From: Nitrosopumilaceae archaeon
GTDB taxonomy: Archaea; Thermoproteota; Nitrososphaeria; Nitrososphaerales; Nitrosopumilaceae
DNA length: 64,000 bases
NCBI GenBank assembly: GCA_965208905.1
Contig: OZ242365.1
Coordinates: 1,856,001-1,920,000 of the forward strand
Direction: 5' to 3'
Position 1 is the stretch's first letter. Each line of letters begins with the position of its first letter. The translations under genes were made by a program, and so were the position numbers. The notes beneath the pieces are model-generated. The model did not search any database and was not told the origin of the DNA. It worked only from the letters and a program-made list of their open reading frames with translations. Positions 38,378-43,552 of the stretch are shown piece by piece.

Positions 38378-38763
38378 CGATGACTCGTATTTTGTCTCCA
38401 AAGTTAGCAACACAAATTGTACAATGCAGATGACTTTGTCCCGTAGCTGGACCTTGTATATCGTTTGGTGGTTCTATTGCAGCAATGCGTCTGTGATGTG
38501 CATACTCGCATCTGGACCACACAACATTACTCTTGTACACCGCACCCTATAGGTCATCTATTGGAGTCTTAATTTGATCATACTTCTTGTACATTGTAAC
38601 TCTACTATCCGTTGCTTTTTTGGCTTCCTGTACCCTACATATATCATAATTATTACTAGCATTTAAAATCATTAATTGAATTTTGTTGACTATTCTCCAA
38701 ACTTGTAGGGGCCGAACCTTAATGACACAAGATTTTTTAATAAGACTTTTGTGTTAACTACTA

Positions 38764-39245
38764 TGATTCCAAGATTTGTACCAGAGGGTAAAAAATTTTT
38801 ACCAAAGGTAACAATGCAAAAATTACGAAGCTTACATAAGAAAGAAAAATCAGAGAAGCGTAAACGATATTATGTTGCAGCCATAAAGCGAAAAGAAGGG
38901 CTATCAGTTAGGGAGATAGCTGATGATGTCAATATGAGCGTCGCTACCATAAGTACGTGGTTGCGGAATATGTCAACACGCGGCGATGCCGAAGGTTATG
39001 GAACCAGACAAGGGAGACCGCCAAAGTTTACCCCCGAACAACTAAAGGAACTAAGTGTTGATATGAAAAAATCCCCATCAGCATATGGTCTGGATTCTGC
39101 CAGTTGGACATCTCCTGTCGTGGCACAGTATGCCCTTCAAAAGTTTAATGTTGAAATTACACCAGGTTCAATGCGTCGCATTCTGGTACGTAAACACATA
39201 GACTGGCCCGGTTCAGCAGAAGCGATGCGAGCAAGACAAAAGTAA
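38764..39245 (+). CDS. Winged-HTH protein resembling the IS630 transposase N-terminus (no DDE domain)
   Basis: GLSVREIADD...TISTWL, GRPPKFT and PSAYGLDSASWT. Confidence 0.75.
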
Positions 39246-39573
39246 ATAATCTTTAAAATTCTTTTACATTAAATTTATTTTTGTGTGTATAATATTAATT
39301 AATAATTTCTGTATATTAAATGTGAAATTAATATCGAGCCAAATTTCGACTTGGACAATAATTATTTAATTTTATTGATATTTTTTTATAATAATTAATT
39401 ATATCATACTAAAAGTGCAAAGTGTTAGAGTCAGAACGCCAAATCAAAGTTGTGTTGCGCAGTGGGTTATGCTAAAGTATGACGTCAAATCAAAGATATT
39501 ATACAATTGCCGGTTGAAGATGATATCATTATGTATTATAGACAAAATATATAGTTCTGGGCTTTGTGGGTTA

Positions 39574-41041
39574 TGGGAATTATATACAAAAGTACACAGC
39601 TTCGGCTGTACACTCATGCCTTTTCTGACGACTTCGTTGTATGGAGTGGAGCATAGAAGGTGTTGGCTTGTAGTCCTCCTTATGCCCCGGCCGTCTTAGG
39701 ACGACGTTCCCCGCCGCCCTATACAGAATATTCCAGGCGGCATTGACATCCGCGTGGAATACCCTGGTACAATTAGTGCAAATGAATTTGTCGCGTGTGA
39801 CACGCGACTTAGCATCCACCGTACCACACACATGGCACGTCTGGCTCGTATATTTGGCCGATGCCCCCAACAGCGGTATGTTGTGCATCTCACACCACTG
39901 CGCAAGCTTGCGCAGGAACTCCCCAACATGGTTCTCCCGCATTGAACGGTTCATAGCGCGTTTGTAATTCCCGCCATGTGTGGTCATATCCTTTACGGAG
40001 AGCGATTCGACCACGACTGCGTCCATGCCATTAGTTATCTGCGCAATCGTCTGATTTATGGTGTTCGCAGCTATGTTGTTGGCCTTCCTGTATAGCCGCT
40101 TTATTTGATCATTCAATATATGCCACTTCCGGCCATGCCGTGTCTTGCGGTCGCGCAAACTCTTGAGAGCGTCAATCTCCCGCAGGATTGCTCTATGGCG
40201 GGTGTTGTGTATTGTGACGTTGCCGTCCGTATCTACCGTGACGGCGAGATGCTTGCCGCCCACATCAACGCCACGCATTACACCCGTAGTATGGTGCAGC
40301 TCGATCGGTATGCGTAACGCTATGTGCAGCTCAAACATGTGGTCGGACGGTTTGGTATGTTTAGTCACCTTCTTGGTGACATCGACTATCCTAAATGACC
40401 GCATGTCCCATGTTTTATAAATGGGTTTTGCGATCTCCACTGTACCGTAGCCGGAGATATGTACGGTGTGATCACCCTTCCGTACAGGCGGTGTAACGGA
40501 ACTAAGTATGATGCGGTCGTCTTTGCGGCGGTATGGCGCATGGCCGGAGTTGTCATCCATGACTCTCCTACATGCGACGGATGCATCTTGTATGGCGCCC
40601 CTGCCAAACACCATAGGCAAGTCAGATACCCATGCATGTTCAGCGCGCCACTCCGTAAGCTGCTTGAACATGCCGTACTTTAATGCTATCTTTGACGGCC
40701 CAAAATCATATGTATGGTAGTCATCGTCCAGCATACCTGATGTAAAATCCAGCTTGCCCGGTAGTTTGAAGGACTGCAGGATGTCCACTACCACCCTCTC
40801 CATATATTCGCCACCAAACAAATACTCTGATACGGCGCGGTTGTATGCATATCTTGACGCATGATTCGTGCGGTGCACCCACTCTGCAAACAACACATCC
40901 CTCCGTAGCGGTACCTTAACTATCCGTATCATAATATATAATACGGTATACTAGTATTTAAGGGGAGTTGTATGGACGCGATCCGTGGTTCAGGCATTAA
41001 CTCTCAGAATCGGGGTTGTGTACTTTTGTATACGATTCCCA
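39574..41041 (-). mobile_element. TnpB-only element bounded by 31-bp terminal inverted repeats
   Basis: 39574-39604 matches the reverse complement of 41011-41041 at 26/31. Confidence 0.75.
39580..40932 (-). CDS. tnpB: RNA-guided endonuclease TnpB
   Basis: RuvC-I GVDVG, RuvC-II VVESL, zinc finger TSQTCHVC...CTNC, RuvC-III HADVNAAWNI. Confidence 0.93.
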   Translation of the reverse strand: MIRIVKVPLRRDVLFAEWVHRTNHASRYAYNRAVSEYLFGGEYMERVVVDILQSFKLPGKLDFTSGMLDDDYHTYDFGPSKIALKYGMFKQLTEWRAEHAWVSDLPMVFGRGAIQDASVACRRVMDDNSGHAPYRRKDDRIILSSVTPPVRKGDHTVHISGYGTVEIAKPIYKTWDMRSFRIVDVTKKVTKHTKPSDHMFELHIALRIPIELHHTTGVMRGVDVGGKHLAVTVDTDGNVTIHNTRHRAILREIDALKSLRDRKTRHGRKWHILNDQIKRLYRKANNIAANTINQTIAQITNGMDAVVVESLSVKDMTTHGGNYKRAMNRSMRENHVGEFLRKLAQWCEMHNIPLLGASAKYTSQTCHVCGTVDAKSRVTRDKFICTNCTRVFHADVNAAWNILYRAAGNVVLRRPGHKEDYKPTPSMLHSIQRSRQKRHECTAEAVYFCI

Positions 41042-41209
41042 ATATTATTGTACAAGGTGTATCGACAAGTCTGCCATGGAAGGTGTCAAGACACGGTGAC
41101 CTATAAGAATCTGTCAAAAAAGTGACCTGCACCAAACTTGACAACCATCTCCACACGAGGTTACCTTTTTGGCAATTCCTCACAGGTTACCATACATGTC
41201 TTATACCGG

Positions 41210-41467
41210 CTAAGTTGAATCCCGTAACCCTTCCAACCGACGTAATTCATCATGAAGTAGTCTAATTACATGTTCATCATTTTTTACAAAATTCTTGCAT
41301 TTGGCGAGATCTTGCCTGTGATCTATTATTTCATCATACTTCTCGGATATTATGGCGGCAACCTCATCACATTTTTTGATATCTTCTTTTATTTTATGGA
41401 GCATGCGGTTCAGATGTTGGCGTATCTTAGTAATCTTCTCCGAAAGCTCGTCTGAAATCTTCTCCAA
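41210..41467 (-). CDS. Coiled-coil ORF B2, +1 frame relative to A2
   Basis: LEKISDEL...HDELRRL aligns with B1. There is no ATG upstream of the homologous part. Confidence 0.7.
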   Translation of the reverse strand: MEKISDELSEKITKIRQHLNRMLHKIKEDIKKCDEVAAIISEKYDEIIDHRQDLAKCKNFVKNDEHVIRLLHDELRRLEGLRDST

Positions 41468-41594
41468 CCTCTCGTACGAGCGCTGCACAACCACGTATCT
41501 GCTCAGCAAGACCCTCGGCTTCCGGTATATTGCGTGCCTCTATAGCGTCTGCCCTTCTCTCAAAATCACTCGCATATCTCTCTATCTCACTCAT
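41427..41594 (-). CDS. Small ORF A2 (55 aa, not in the ORF track)
   Basis: Hand translation MSEIERYASDFERRADAIEARNIPEAEGLAEQIRGCAALVREVGEDFRRAFGEDY*. Homologous to A1. Confidence 0.75.
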   Translation of the reverse strand: MSEIERYASDFERRADAIEARNIPEAEGLAEQIRGCAALVREVGEDFRRAFGEDY

Positions 41595-42010
41595 ACATTA
41601 CATATACCCACTATAACATAAAAACCATCACGCCGACACGGGACTGGTAAGAAGTGCTGACCTTCGTATGGTTGGAAAAGATCTAACGTCTGATTAGAAA
41701 GTTTGTAACCTGATGTATGGTACGCTCCGACCCGTTTCTGCCCCCACTAGGCACTACCTGAATTTCCACACCGAGTCACTTTTTTGACAGTTACTCATAG
41801 GTCACCATGTCTTGACACCGCCCTTGACACGGGTATGATTCTCCCTGTGGTTGGAGCAACCCTTTCTGGTACGCGGAAGGCTCATTATATCCCTCTGGAT
41901 GGTAGAAACACCAACAGCGTGTTATGTGTTTCAGATCGCTTGAAAGTGGTTTGATTACGCATAAACTCTACTCCTAAATCCTTAAAGCAAGTATGTAATT
42001 ATAGACAGAC

Positions 42011-42313
42011 ATGAAAGATTATGACCATATAGTGGTCTGGCTGGATTACTTTAACAAAAACCTGTCTCGCTCTCAGGGTAGACGACTGAGCAAAGACTAT
42101 TGTGTATCGGCCCCAGTATTGGATGATTTAAGTGCAGCTGCAAAGATGGCCGGCTATACTGTCCAAGACACAAATTATAAAGTCCGTCACCCCCGTCGTG
42201 CCAACATTAGATCAGGATATATCACTATACCAAAGAGTGACCCAAAGACTCGCGTACTGTATAGGATTGCTCCAAAACTTGTGCGGGTAGACAAGGGCAG
42301 TAAAAAAAAATAG
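42011..42313 (+). CDS. srp19: Signal recognition particle protein SRP19
   Basis: VVWLDYFNKNLSRSQGRRL and HPRR. Confidence 0.92.
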   Translation: MKDYDHIVVWLDYFNKNLSRSQGRRLSKDYCVSAPVLDDLSAAAKMAGYTVQDTNYKVRHPRRANIRSGYITIPKSDPKTRVLYRIAPKLVRVDKGSKKK

Positions 42314-42374
42314 GCTACTTTGTTTAAAAAAACAAACAATATAGTTTGTAAATATGTACATTGCAACACCTGCT

Positions 42375-42614
42375 ATGAAACAGATGGGTGTAGTACTACA
42401 TCAGGCTGGTAGTGGACGTGTAATAATAAGACTGAATGGAGAGGCTTCTGAGGGAGATATATTGTGTAATTCGCAGGGTGTGCGCGTAGCCCGAATTCGA
42501 GAGGTTATAGGGCCGGTAAGGGCACCATATGCTTCGGCTGAACCACTAACTAACAATATACAACGGCATATGGGTGAGCCGGTGAGCATATGTAACAGGG
42601 GGAAGAAACATTGA
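42375..42614 (+). CDS. gar1: H/ACA RNP protein Gar1/Naf1
   Basis: VARIREVIGPVRAPY, in the conserved srp19-gar1-tfb gene order. Confidence 0.85.
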   Translation: MKQMGVVLHQAGSGRVIIRLNGEASEGDILCNSQGVRVARIREVIGPVRAPYASAEPLTNNIQRHMGEPVSICNRGKKH

Positions 42615-43552
42615 TGTCTGAAACCTCTAGATGTGCAGAGTGTAGTGCTCCACTCATACATGATATGGATAGTGGGGAGATGGTATGTTGCAAATGCGGT
42701 ATTGTGGCAGATGATCACATGCCGGATCCTGTCATGTCGCCCTTGGGTTTGTTTGATGATCAGGGTCAAAGAATGCCCCGGGTTTCGGGCCAGCTGACGC
42801 TATCTCAGCATGATATGGGTGTGATGACAGGTATTGCATCTGGCAGCACAGACTTTAGCGGAAATGTCATAGCGCGAGTCACACAGTCAAAGATGACCAA
42901 ACTACGAAGATGGCAGAATAGAATTCGTATTAATGGAAATCGGGACAGGCGTACATCTGAAGTTTTGAATAGGGTTTCTGATATATGCAATGCACTGTCA
43001 TTACCAAAGACAGTTTTGGAGAGTGCCTCGCTGACATATCGTAACTTAGATAGTACTGTGGATCTTAAAAATAAATCCACAGTGGCAGTTGCATGCGCCA
43101 TGGTGTATATGGGCTGTAAAAAATGTGATGCCATAAGATCCATGCAGGAGCTAGTCAACTCCATCTGCCCGCAAAAGGAGGTGCGCCTCAAAACAAGATT
43201 GGCGAACCGCTACTATCGTACACTGGTACTAGAGACCGGAAGTCCCCGTTCTGAGCCAATACCAATAGACAAGTATATCTCAAAGATATCGAACATATCT
43301 GAGGCTAGTGGACATGCTGAGCGATTGGCCTTACGACTGGCCCACAAGACCAAAAATCAAGATATTAGTAATGGTCGTGACCCCGGGGGTCTGGCCGCCG
43401 CATATCTATGCATCGCAAGTATGTTGCTCAGTCCAGACAATATTCAGCGAGACATTACTGAAGCGTCGGGCGTAACCAATGTTACCGTCAGGGGTAGATG
43501 TAAAACAATACTCTCCACATATGATATACGTGTGACACTAAATCCTTCATAA
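42614..43552 (+). CDS. tfb: Transcription initiation factor IIB
   Basis: Zn ribbon CAEC...GEMVCCKCG, LRRWQ and cyclin repeats (GRDPGGLAAAYL). Confidence 0.93.
   Translation: MSETSRCAECSAPLIHDMDSGEMVCCKCGIVADDHMPDPVMSPLGLFDDQGQRMPRVSGQLTLSQHDMGVMTGIASGSTDFSGNVIARVTQSKMTKLRRWQNRIRINGNRDRRTSEVLNRVSDICNALSLPKTVLESASLTYRNLDSTVDLKNKSTVAVACAMVYMGCKKCDAIRSMQELVNSICPQKEVRLKTRLANRYYRTLVLETGSPRSEPIPIDKYISKISNISEASGHAERLALRLAHKTKNQDISNGRDPGGLAAAYLCIASMLLSPDNIQRDITEASGVTNVTVRGRCKTILSTYDIRVTLNPS

Follow-up and report, generated by a model that had tools for sequence, protein, structure and literature searches.

What moves a gene for an RNA-guided nuclease that lies alone between terminal inverted repeats (TIRs), with no transposase gene at its side? 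The question is raised by a stretch of 64,000 nucleotides from a Nitrosopumilaceae archaeon (contig OZ242365.1, positions 1,856,001 to 1,920,000; hereafter the window, the coordinates of which are used below unless a genome is named), whose genome (G000) comprises a single contig of 2.21 Mb and is 99.6% complete. The window contains a tnpB gene that, according to an original prediction made from the sequence alone, had been captured by a TIR-bounded element mobilised in trans. As far as sequences can tell, this proposal is supported by the ends of the other copies of the element, by the 8-bp duplications around them and by transposase-bearing elements with the same ends. It is, in our view, very probable that the segment 39575-41040 is a non-autonomous IS1595-type element that carries an intact TnpB and a putative omega-RNA as cargo and is moved in trans.

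A repeat search of the window returned an inverted pair of 25 nt, 92% complementary, around the tnpB open reading frame (ORF; 39574-39598 and 41017-41041), and the longer repeat with 26 matches over 31 positions that had been reported before was reproduced from the sequence. Alignment of the other copies, which had been proposed as a check, places the true ends one base further in: every copy is bounded by GGGAATTATATAC...GTATATAATTCCC, i.e., by 39575 and 41040 in the window, and the outermost T/A of the repeat as first described is flank, not element. Delimited by the homology limits of 14 other full copies, the element measures 1466 bp, is oriented on the minus strand and has tnpB as its sole gene. 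Its TIR is 25 nt long, starting with GGGAATTATATAC. The right-end TIR, on the 3' side of tnpB (39575-39599), reads GGGAATTATATACAAAAGTACACAG inwards and is free of mismatches to the family consensus, whereas the left-end TIR upstream of tnpB (41016-41040; GGGAATCGTATAC...) has three; in most copies the 25-nt arms agree at 24-25 of 25 positions. A BLAST search of the element against the genome recovered 15 full-length copies with identities of 77-100%, one copy split by an insertion sequence (IS), one internally deleted copy of 640 bp and three solo 3' fragments. The split copy (G000 1972621-1975198, locus L025) is interrupted by a 1.1-kb IS630-type insert encoding a 335-aa DDE_3 transposase. 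Since the 15 full copies and the split copy all have these ends, and an 8-bp direct duplication surrounds 13 of the 16 (perfect in 12, with a single mismatch in one), the inverted repeat of the window element is far beyond chance. All homology boundaries coincide with the repeats, and none of the copies has ends of the IS605/IS607 type.

TnpA, which the original prediction had found missing from the element, is missing from the remainder of the genome as well. Neither a Y1 transposase (Y1_Tnp) nor a serine recombinase (Resolvase) is encoded in G000, and among the ten genomes of the genus the former occurs in none and the latter in one. This bears directly on the possibility that we are dealing with an ordinary solo TnpB of the IS1341 type of IS200/IS605, with inverted ends that are coincidental or of local origin. 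Such an element would likewise have TnpB as its only gene, with the usual Pfam domains; however, the IS1341 type lacks TIRs and target duplications according to the passages devoted to it in a 2026 review (PMC13565253), whereas both accompany 13 of the 16 copies here, and a Y1 transposase is found in none of the ten genomes of the genus. This explanation is already refuted, and we assign it a probability close to nil.

Which enzyme, then, could move the element? Its outer 10-13 bases are common to other elements of G000, among which are two further TnpB families (1639 bp and 1420 bp) and elements of 372-450 bp that resemble miniature inverted-repeat transposable elements (MITEs). Four of the same-ended elements encode intact proteins of 319-323 aa with the domains DDE_Tnp_IS1595 (E ~1e-40) and Zn_ribbon_IS1595, so that the proposed search for a transposase gene with the same TIR was successful. 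All four end in GGGAATTATA(TAC), those at G000 1043578-1046414 and 1770047-1772736 in GGGAATTATATA(C/G) and those at G000 675271-677401 and 1211856-1213986 in GGGAATTATAG, and all four are flanked by perfect 8-bp duplications. IS1595 elements typically have duplications of this length and ends of this kind, and DDE_Tnp_IS1595 is present in all ten genomes of the genus. Because the transposase is encoded by these sister elements with the same termini and not by the window element, which contains no DDE_Tnp_IS1595 gene, the latter is classed as a non-autonomous derivative rather than as an independent IS. A composite of 2562 bp in the congener G001 (locus L060, 1789-4350) encodes both a TnpB and an IS1595 transposase, on the same strand; it has GGGAATTAT... 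ends plus an extra internal end, is flanked by the perfect duplication CCGGTATC and looks like a capture intermediate. It is because of the shared ends, the 8-bp duplications, the IS1595 transposases, the lack of Y1 and serine enzymes (the latter in G000 itself) and this composite that we favor a mobilisation in which the IS1595 DDE transposases of sister elements sharing the terminal 10-13 bases would cut and insert the element in trans.

Two side observations concern the same-ended elements of G000. The IS1595 elements C/D (e.g., those at 1043578-1046414 and 1770047-1772736) carry a passenger of a different kind, a fusion of an N6/N4 DNA methylase and an HNH endonuclease of 454 aa, of which the copy in element D is split. 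Furthermore, two identical 1639-bp TnpB elements (G000 1455264-1456902 and 2049469-2051107) have exchanged flanks, TAATTTCC occurring both to the left of one copy and to the right of its twin, which suggests a rearrangement through recombination between the copies.

The window element is one of many. TNB-domain matches in G000 number 75, in 8 protein families, and there are about 70 tnpB genes of these 8 families. All 8 have members between inverted repeats; clear 8-bp duplications are seen in families 0-4 and 6 and are not evident in family 5. A different repeat, GGTTCCTCCCGCAA... (GGTTCC type), for which 69 matches are listed in G000, bounds families 1 and 3; it delimits two TnpB families (~1515 bp and ~1615 bp) as well as derivatives that are MITE-like and 355-585 bp long, and 8-bp duplications accompany all of these. 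Of 40 TnpB loci taken from four congeners, 27 have GGGAAT-type repeats and an 8-bp duplication. Since the stop codon lies 5 nt from the element end in 24 of these 27, the ORFs of several families terminate at a conserved TAA within the repeat. At a threshold of E <= 1e-20, homologues are present in 8 of the 9 remaining genomes of the genus and absent from all 21 other genera among the relatives searched, and in a sample of 401 genomes from 161 genera of the phylum matches at E <= 1e-30 are limited to the genus and one genome of a sister genus. The element of this sister genus, a genus of the same taxonomic family, has the same architecture, with GGGAATTA... ends and a duplication matching at 7 of 8 positions. 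A protein scan of public genome contigs yielded two loci, both in one metagenome-assembled genome of Cenarchaeum, and that of public metagenome contigs only two weak, irrelevant ones. The sponge-associated genus Cenarchaeum appears to have transferred all of its TnpBs to TIR elements that generate 8-bp duplications and are probably driven by IS1595 transposases.

Is the cargo of the window element still a functional nuclease gene? The tnpB ORF (39580-40932, minus strand) encodes 450 aa, and its TAA stop codon (39580-39582) falls inside the right repeat, as had been noted before. Its product is recognised by Pfam as OrfB_IS605 (PF01385, E 1.4e-8) and Cas12f1-like TNB domain (PF07282, E 3.2e-16) and matches solved TnpB/Cas12f chains, best 8iaz (E 8.5e-10). 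In the alignment with these chains, the motifs GVDVG, VVVESL and HADVNAA supply the RuvC residues D223 (40264-40266), E309 (40006-40008) and D395 (39748-39750; all three codons read from the sequence on the minus strand), and CHVCG and CTNC form the zinc finger (C366, C369, C385 and C388), so that both the three acidic residues and the zinc finger are intact, in line with the original prediction. Intact ORFs of 450-451 aa are found in 14 of the 16 copies; the DVG motif is retained in all 14 and ADVNAA in 13 of them. The median ratio of nonsynonymous to synonymous divergence (dN/dS) over 90 pairs of these intact ORFs is 0.21, and TnpB is thus under purifying selection.

The 3' end of the element is also expected to encode an RNA. 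A predicted omega-RNA scaffold occupies the last ~195 nt of the sense strand (39575-39770, minus strand), where it overlaps the 3' end of tnpB, and for the last 226 nt the predicted fold has an energy of -80.6 kcal/mol (z-score -4.7). The consensus structure of 25 aligned right ends from G000, G001, G006 and G008 comprises 32 pairs with 97.7% of the cells paired, 6 of the pairs having changes on both sides; its covariation score was reached by none of 500 shuffles, and slid controls pair at 42-56%. The ACAGC-CGAA-GCUGU hairpin noticed earlier caps a longer predicted stem (39586-39619, minus strand), the 3' arm of which is the inner repeat and beyond which 11 nt (39575-39585) remain unpaired. 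In each of the seven subfamily representatives that were folded, 11 nt separate this terminal hairpin from the end of the element, and its stems differ in sequence among subfamilies (CAUGAGUGUACAGC..., GGGAUAAG..., GCAUGGAUCGCGCC...), and the left end of the element folds differently. Synonymous divergence is 0.29 in the last 66 codons of tnpB vs. 0.48 elsewhere in the gene. The three solo fragments (G000 1493807-1494007, 1694379-1694542 and 2197132-2197325) contain only the last 164-201 nt of the element, i.e., the putative omega-RNA region together with the right repeat, and lack tnpB; they may have arisen by decay or may be guide-RNA genes that stand alone.

The suggestion that the TIR doubles as the 3' scaffold of the omega-RNA thus finds support, as a structural prediction, for the inner repeat, which is predicted to pair with upstream sequence in a hairpin that covaries between subfamilies. 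If the element resembles IS605 TnpB, and Fanzor elements that have the repeat in their scaffold, its guide would consist of flank sequence starting at 39574 and running towards lower coordinates. The guide start that had been proposed is shifted by one base, to the predicted sense sequence AUAACCCAC... from 39574, and read-through of the fixed element end would, given what is known of TnpB biology, append AUAACCCACAAAGCCCAG (sense; 39557-39574, minus strand). The tnpB frame stays open through the predicted omega-RNA scaffold and ends at a TAA supplied by the repeat. The inner part of the repeat would form the 3' arm of the last scaffold hairpin, and transcription leaving the right end would append the 8-bp duplication and the flank as guide. 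TnpB would then cut the emptied donor site, and repair would restore the element, as in the model published for IS605/IS607.

Several observations weigh against this interpretation. The TnpB elements and the transposase elements have repeats that diverge beyond the outer 10-13 bases, and for the TnpB families with GGTTCCTCCCGCAA... (GGTTCC-type) ends no transposase-bearing partner was found among the G000 end pairs compared. For the predicted RNA, the right-end structure overlaps coding sequence and comes from the same alignment that was used for counting, and we consider its covariation supportive rather than conclusive for an omega-RNA. No Rfam family scored above threshold, the best being an HDV-like match at 39680-39741 (21 bits vs. 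a cut-off of 44, E 0.46). One sponge metatranscriptome (X20) covers only 39688-40025 and 40689-40843 of the element; it consists of contigs, of which ends and strand are not readable and in which carry-over of DNA is possible. Finally, the window copy has no target duplication: the flank at its left end, where one is expected (41041-41048), matches the opposite flank at 4 of 8 positions (ATAATATT vs. ATAACCCA, sense), its left repeat is changed at 3 of 25 positions, and this copy may no longer be mobile. Two other copies likewise lack a duplication, and, judged by eye, neither flank of the window copy matches the flanks of these two, as a recombination partner would.

The limited agreement of the ends, together with the partnerless GGTTCC-type families, could mean that the mover is not an IS1595 transposase but an unrecognised transposase or TnpB itself. 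We know of no case in which TnpB integrates DNA, and the combination of 8-bp duplications with GGGAAT... ends is common to elements that do encode an IS1595 transposase. Moreover, the G001 composite moved as a unit by means of such ends, and every genome of the genus has IS1595 DDE genes. We therefore hold a different mover to be improbable, and retain IS1595 transposases acting in trans.

The state of the window copy has a bearing on another alternative, a domesticated TnpB that serves the host, e.g., as an RNA-guided regulator, and has lost its mobility. Both junctions of this copy are bridged by contigs from three independent studies, whereas contigs derived from other copies diverge precisely at 39575 and at 41040. 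This shows the arrangement to be real, and it is probably old; an empty-site joint of the insertion was not seen in the contigs compared. An insertion that has kept the same flanks in three studies, has no duplication and has a degraded left repeat would suit domestication. However, the catalytic triad is intact, the 15 full-length copies occupy different sites with fresh duplications and no neighbouring gene is conserved, all of which makes a domesticated, host-serving role very unlikely. A non-autonomous element moved by IS1595 transposases accounts for the family better, even if the window copy itself may have come to rest.

What, then, would TnpB contribute to such an element? The sites at which the elements inserted may hold part of the answer. 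Insertions were oriented by tnpB and the empty sites reconstructed, which for the family of the window element gave 13 sites in G000 and 5 in G006. In 17 of these 18 sites a G stands directly 5' of the left-end duplication, i.e., at -1 (binomial P ~2e-10 at G = 0.23), with T at -3 in 12 and A at -4 in 10, so that the motif is approximately A-T-N-G; the first duplicated base is T in 15 sites, and the mirror C at +1 occurs in only 3. The duplications are 85% AT in G000 and 97% AT in G006, where the sampled loci have 58-62% GC. The original prediction of an AT-rich target-adjacent motif (TAM) was thus half right: the other copies have a candidate TAM 5' of the duplication, but the window copy itself is without the A-T-N-G motif. 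The GGTTCC-ended families (17 elements in the site table, one 585-bp element being omitted as unorientable) show other motifs. One has W-T-A in 9 of 9 sites, in 8 of which C is the base that opens the duplication, and the other T-T-G in 5 of 7; the difference between A and not-A at -1 is significant (Fisher P ~0.0009). An AT-rich, TATA-like box lies at about -12..-6 in these families. At 24 sites of other GGGAAT-ended families in GC-rich congeners (loci L049-L079 of G001, G005, G006 and G009, several TnpB families), no adjacent base is conserved (G in 6 of 24), and a TATA-like AT box is found at -17..-11, on the left-end side only, together with T at -8 in 16 and C at -5 in 14 sites.

These oriented motifs may be either TAMs or a target preference of the transposase. 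Because they are one-sided, family-specific and adjoin the would-be guide sequence, we tentatively propose that A-T-N-G in the window family and W-T-A and T-T-G in the GGTTCC-ended families are TAMs, although we think this proposal has a greater chance of failing than of holding. The motifs would become enriched if only copies that landed beside a TAM had their emptied donor site re-cut and restored, while the others were lost on excision. Two findings count against TAMs in particular: same-ended elements without TnpB show a one-sided G in 4 of 5 cases, and the distal AT box is a misfit for a TAM.

The same findings lend weight to the simpler explanation that TnpB is a mere passenger of an IS1595-type element and that the oriented motif is the target preference of the IS1595 transposase. 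Same-ended elements that bear a transposase or lack TnpB also sit in AT-rich 8-mers, and four of five have the one-sided G beside the duplication, a frequency with a chance probability of ~0.1 if either orientation is allowed. A nuclease that reads a guide has no reason to impose an AT content of 85-97% on the duplication, and the GGGAAT-ended TnpB families of the GC-rich congeners have no conserved base 5' of it. On the other hand, a symmetric DDE transpososome should have a symmetric preference, which is at odds with G at -1 in 17 and C at +1 in 3 of the 18 sites. The two families with a near-identical GGTTCCTCCCGCAA... repeat, moreover, differ at -1, with A in 9 of 9 vs. G in 5 of 7, and the dN/dS of 0.21 indicates that the protein is kept. 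A passenger role is quite possible, with a likelihood that falls somewhat short of even; trans-mobilisation by IS1595 transposases would be common to this explanation and to the one in which TnpB restores the element.

Promoter capture was also considered as a reason for the oriented insertions and found no support. The insertions are not located upstream of co-directional genes: with the nearest ORF of at least 120 aa within 150 nt downstream, as obtained by crude ORF calling, 5 of the 13 window-family sites are co-directional and 4 convergent. Most insertion sites (22 of 27) are simply intergenic.

The surroundings of the window element contain further repeats and genes. A unit of 758 bp (41072-41829), located 31 nt from the left end of the TnpB element, is bordered by 55-nt inverted repeats (85% complementary), of which a similar arm exists elsewhere in the genome, and encloses a coiled-coil-like ORF of 99 aa (41210-41509, minus strand). 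On the other side, outside the element, a helix-turn-helix protein of 164 aa without DDE domain (38751-39245, plus strand) is similar to the DNA-binding N-terminal region of an IS630-type transposase in G000 (27% identity, E 3e-8). The region 42011-43552 encodes SRP19 (Pfam E 2.6e-13) and a protein of 313 aa that is TFIIB-like by eye, on account of which the replicon is archaeal.

TnpB is the ancestor of Cas12 and a compact genome-editing enzyme. To our knowledge, what it does in nature is clear only in the case of IS605/IS607, elements whose excision leaves no scar. The elements of Cenarchaeum would provide a tractable natural system for determining what an RNA-guided nuclease does for a cut-and-paste element, and the presence of transposase and TnpB in one element would represent an intermediate that shows how capture happened. 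The elements also provide a prokaryotic parallel to the capture of Fanzor by eukaryotic transposons, and they supply several new TnpBs that are mesophilic and for which guide positions are predicted and candidate TAMs available. If the motifs are indeed TAMs, they would constitute natural, genome-wide evidence of an RNA-guided nuclease that gives a cut-and-paste DDE transposon a copy-and-paste life style, and TAMs could be read straight from genomes.

How does the window element compare with systems described before? The IS1595 family is a prokaryotic relative of the eukaryotic Merlin transposons and reportedly includes groups with passenger genes. The elements studied here resemble it in the DDE and zinc-ribbon domains of the sister-element transposase, in the AT-rich 8-bp duplications and in the carriage of passengers (the methylase-HNH fusion of C/D). 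The window element differs in that it has no transposase of its own and in the nature of its passenger, an RNA-guided nuclease accompanied by a predicted structured RNA in one end. With the IS1341 group of IS200/IS605 it shares TnpB as sole gene, a (here putative) omega-RNA overlapping its 3' end and a short motif upstream of the left end, cf. the target sites TTAC or TTGAT in the review's treatment of this family (PMC13565253). However, according to the same passages, IS200/IS605 elements have no TIRs, make no duplications and use a Y1 transposase, none of which applies to the family described here. Nor does the window element agree with IS607, which has a serine-recombinase TnpA and neither repeats nor duplications.

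The closest known systems are the TnpBs associated with DDE transposases. In the main text of their study, Altae-Tran et al. (2023, PNAS; PMC10691335) describe six such branches with inverted terminal repeats, including solo TnpBs whose ends are nearly identical to those of transposase-bearing relatives and that were inferred to be trans-mobilised. As in the window element, TnpB lies within TIRs shared with a DDE element and has its 3' end near the transposon end. That main text names IS630 as the DDE partner and leaves IS1595 unnamed, while its supplements may still include an IS1595 branch. The 2026 review lists, in the part concerned with DDE partners, ISL2, IS630 and IS1031 and describes the pairing as rare in prokaryotes and hard to explain (PMC13565253). 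A full-text literature search, judged by title and abstract, gave no paper on TnpB with IS1595 and none that was relevant via ISNwi1. The elements described here differ from these DDE-associated TnpBs in that the stop codon lies within the repeat, 5 nt from the end, and in that ~70 tnpB genes of 8 families are accommodated in one archaeal genome of 2.2 Mb without TnpA.

A second parallel is found in eukaryotes and their viruses. In the sections of Yoon et al. (2023, NAR; PMC10711439) that deal with such elements, Fanzor or Fanzor2* is the sole cargo of non-autonomous elements with TIRs and target site duplications, the repeat is predicted to lie within the guide-RNA scaffold, and the RNA continues past the duplication. 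Those elements are eukaryotic or viral and belong to other transposon superfamilies, whereas here the host is an archaeon and the partner IS1595. The kind of element, TnpB within a DDE/TIR transposon, has thus been known since 2023; what the elements of Cenarchaeum add is the genus-wide scale of the association, an apparent capture intermediate and the oriented motifs at the insertion sites.

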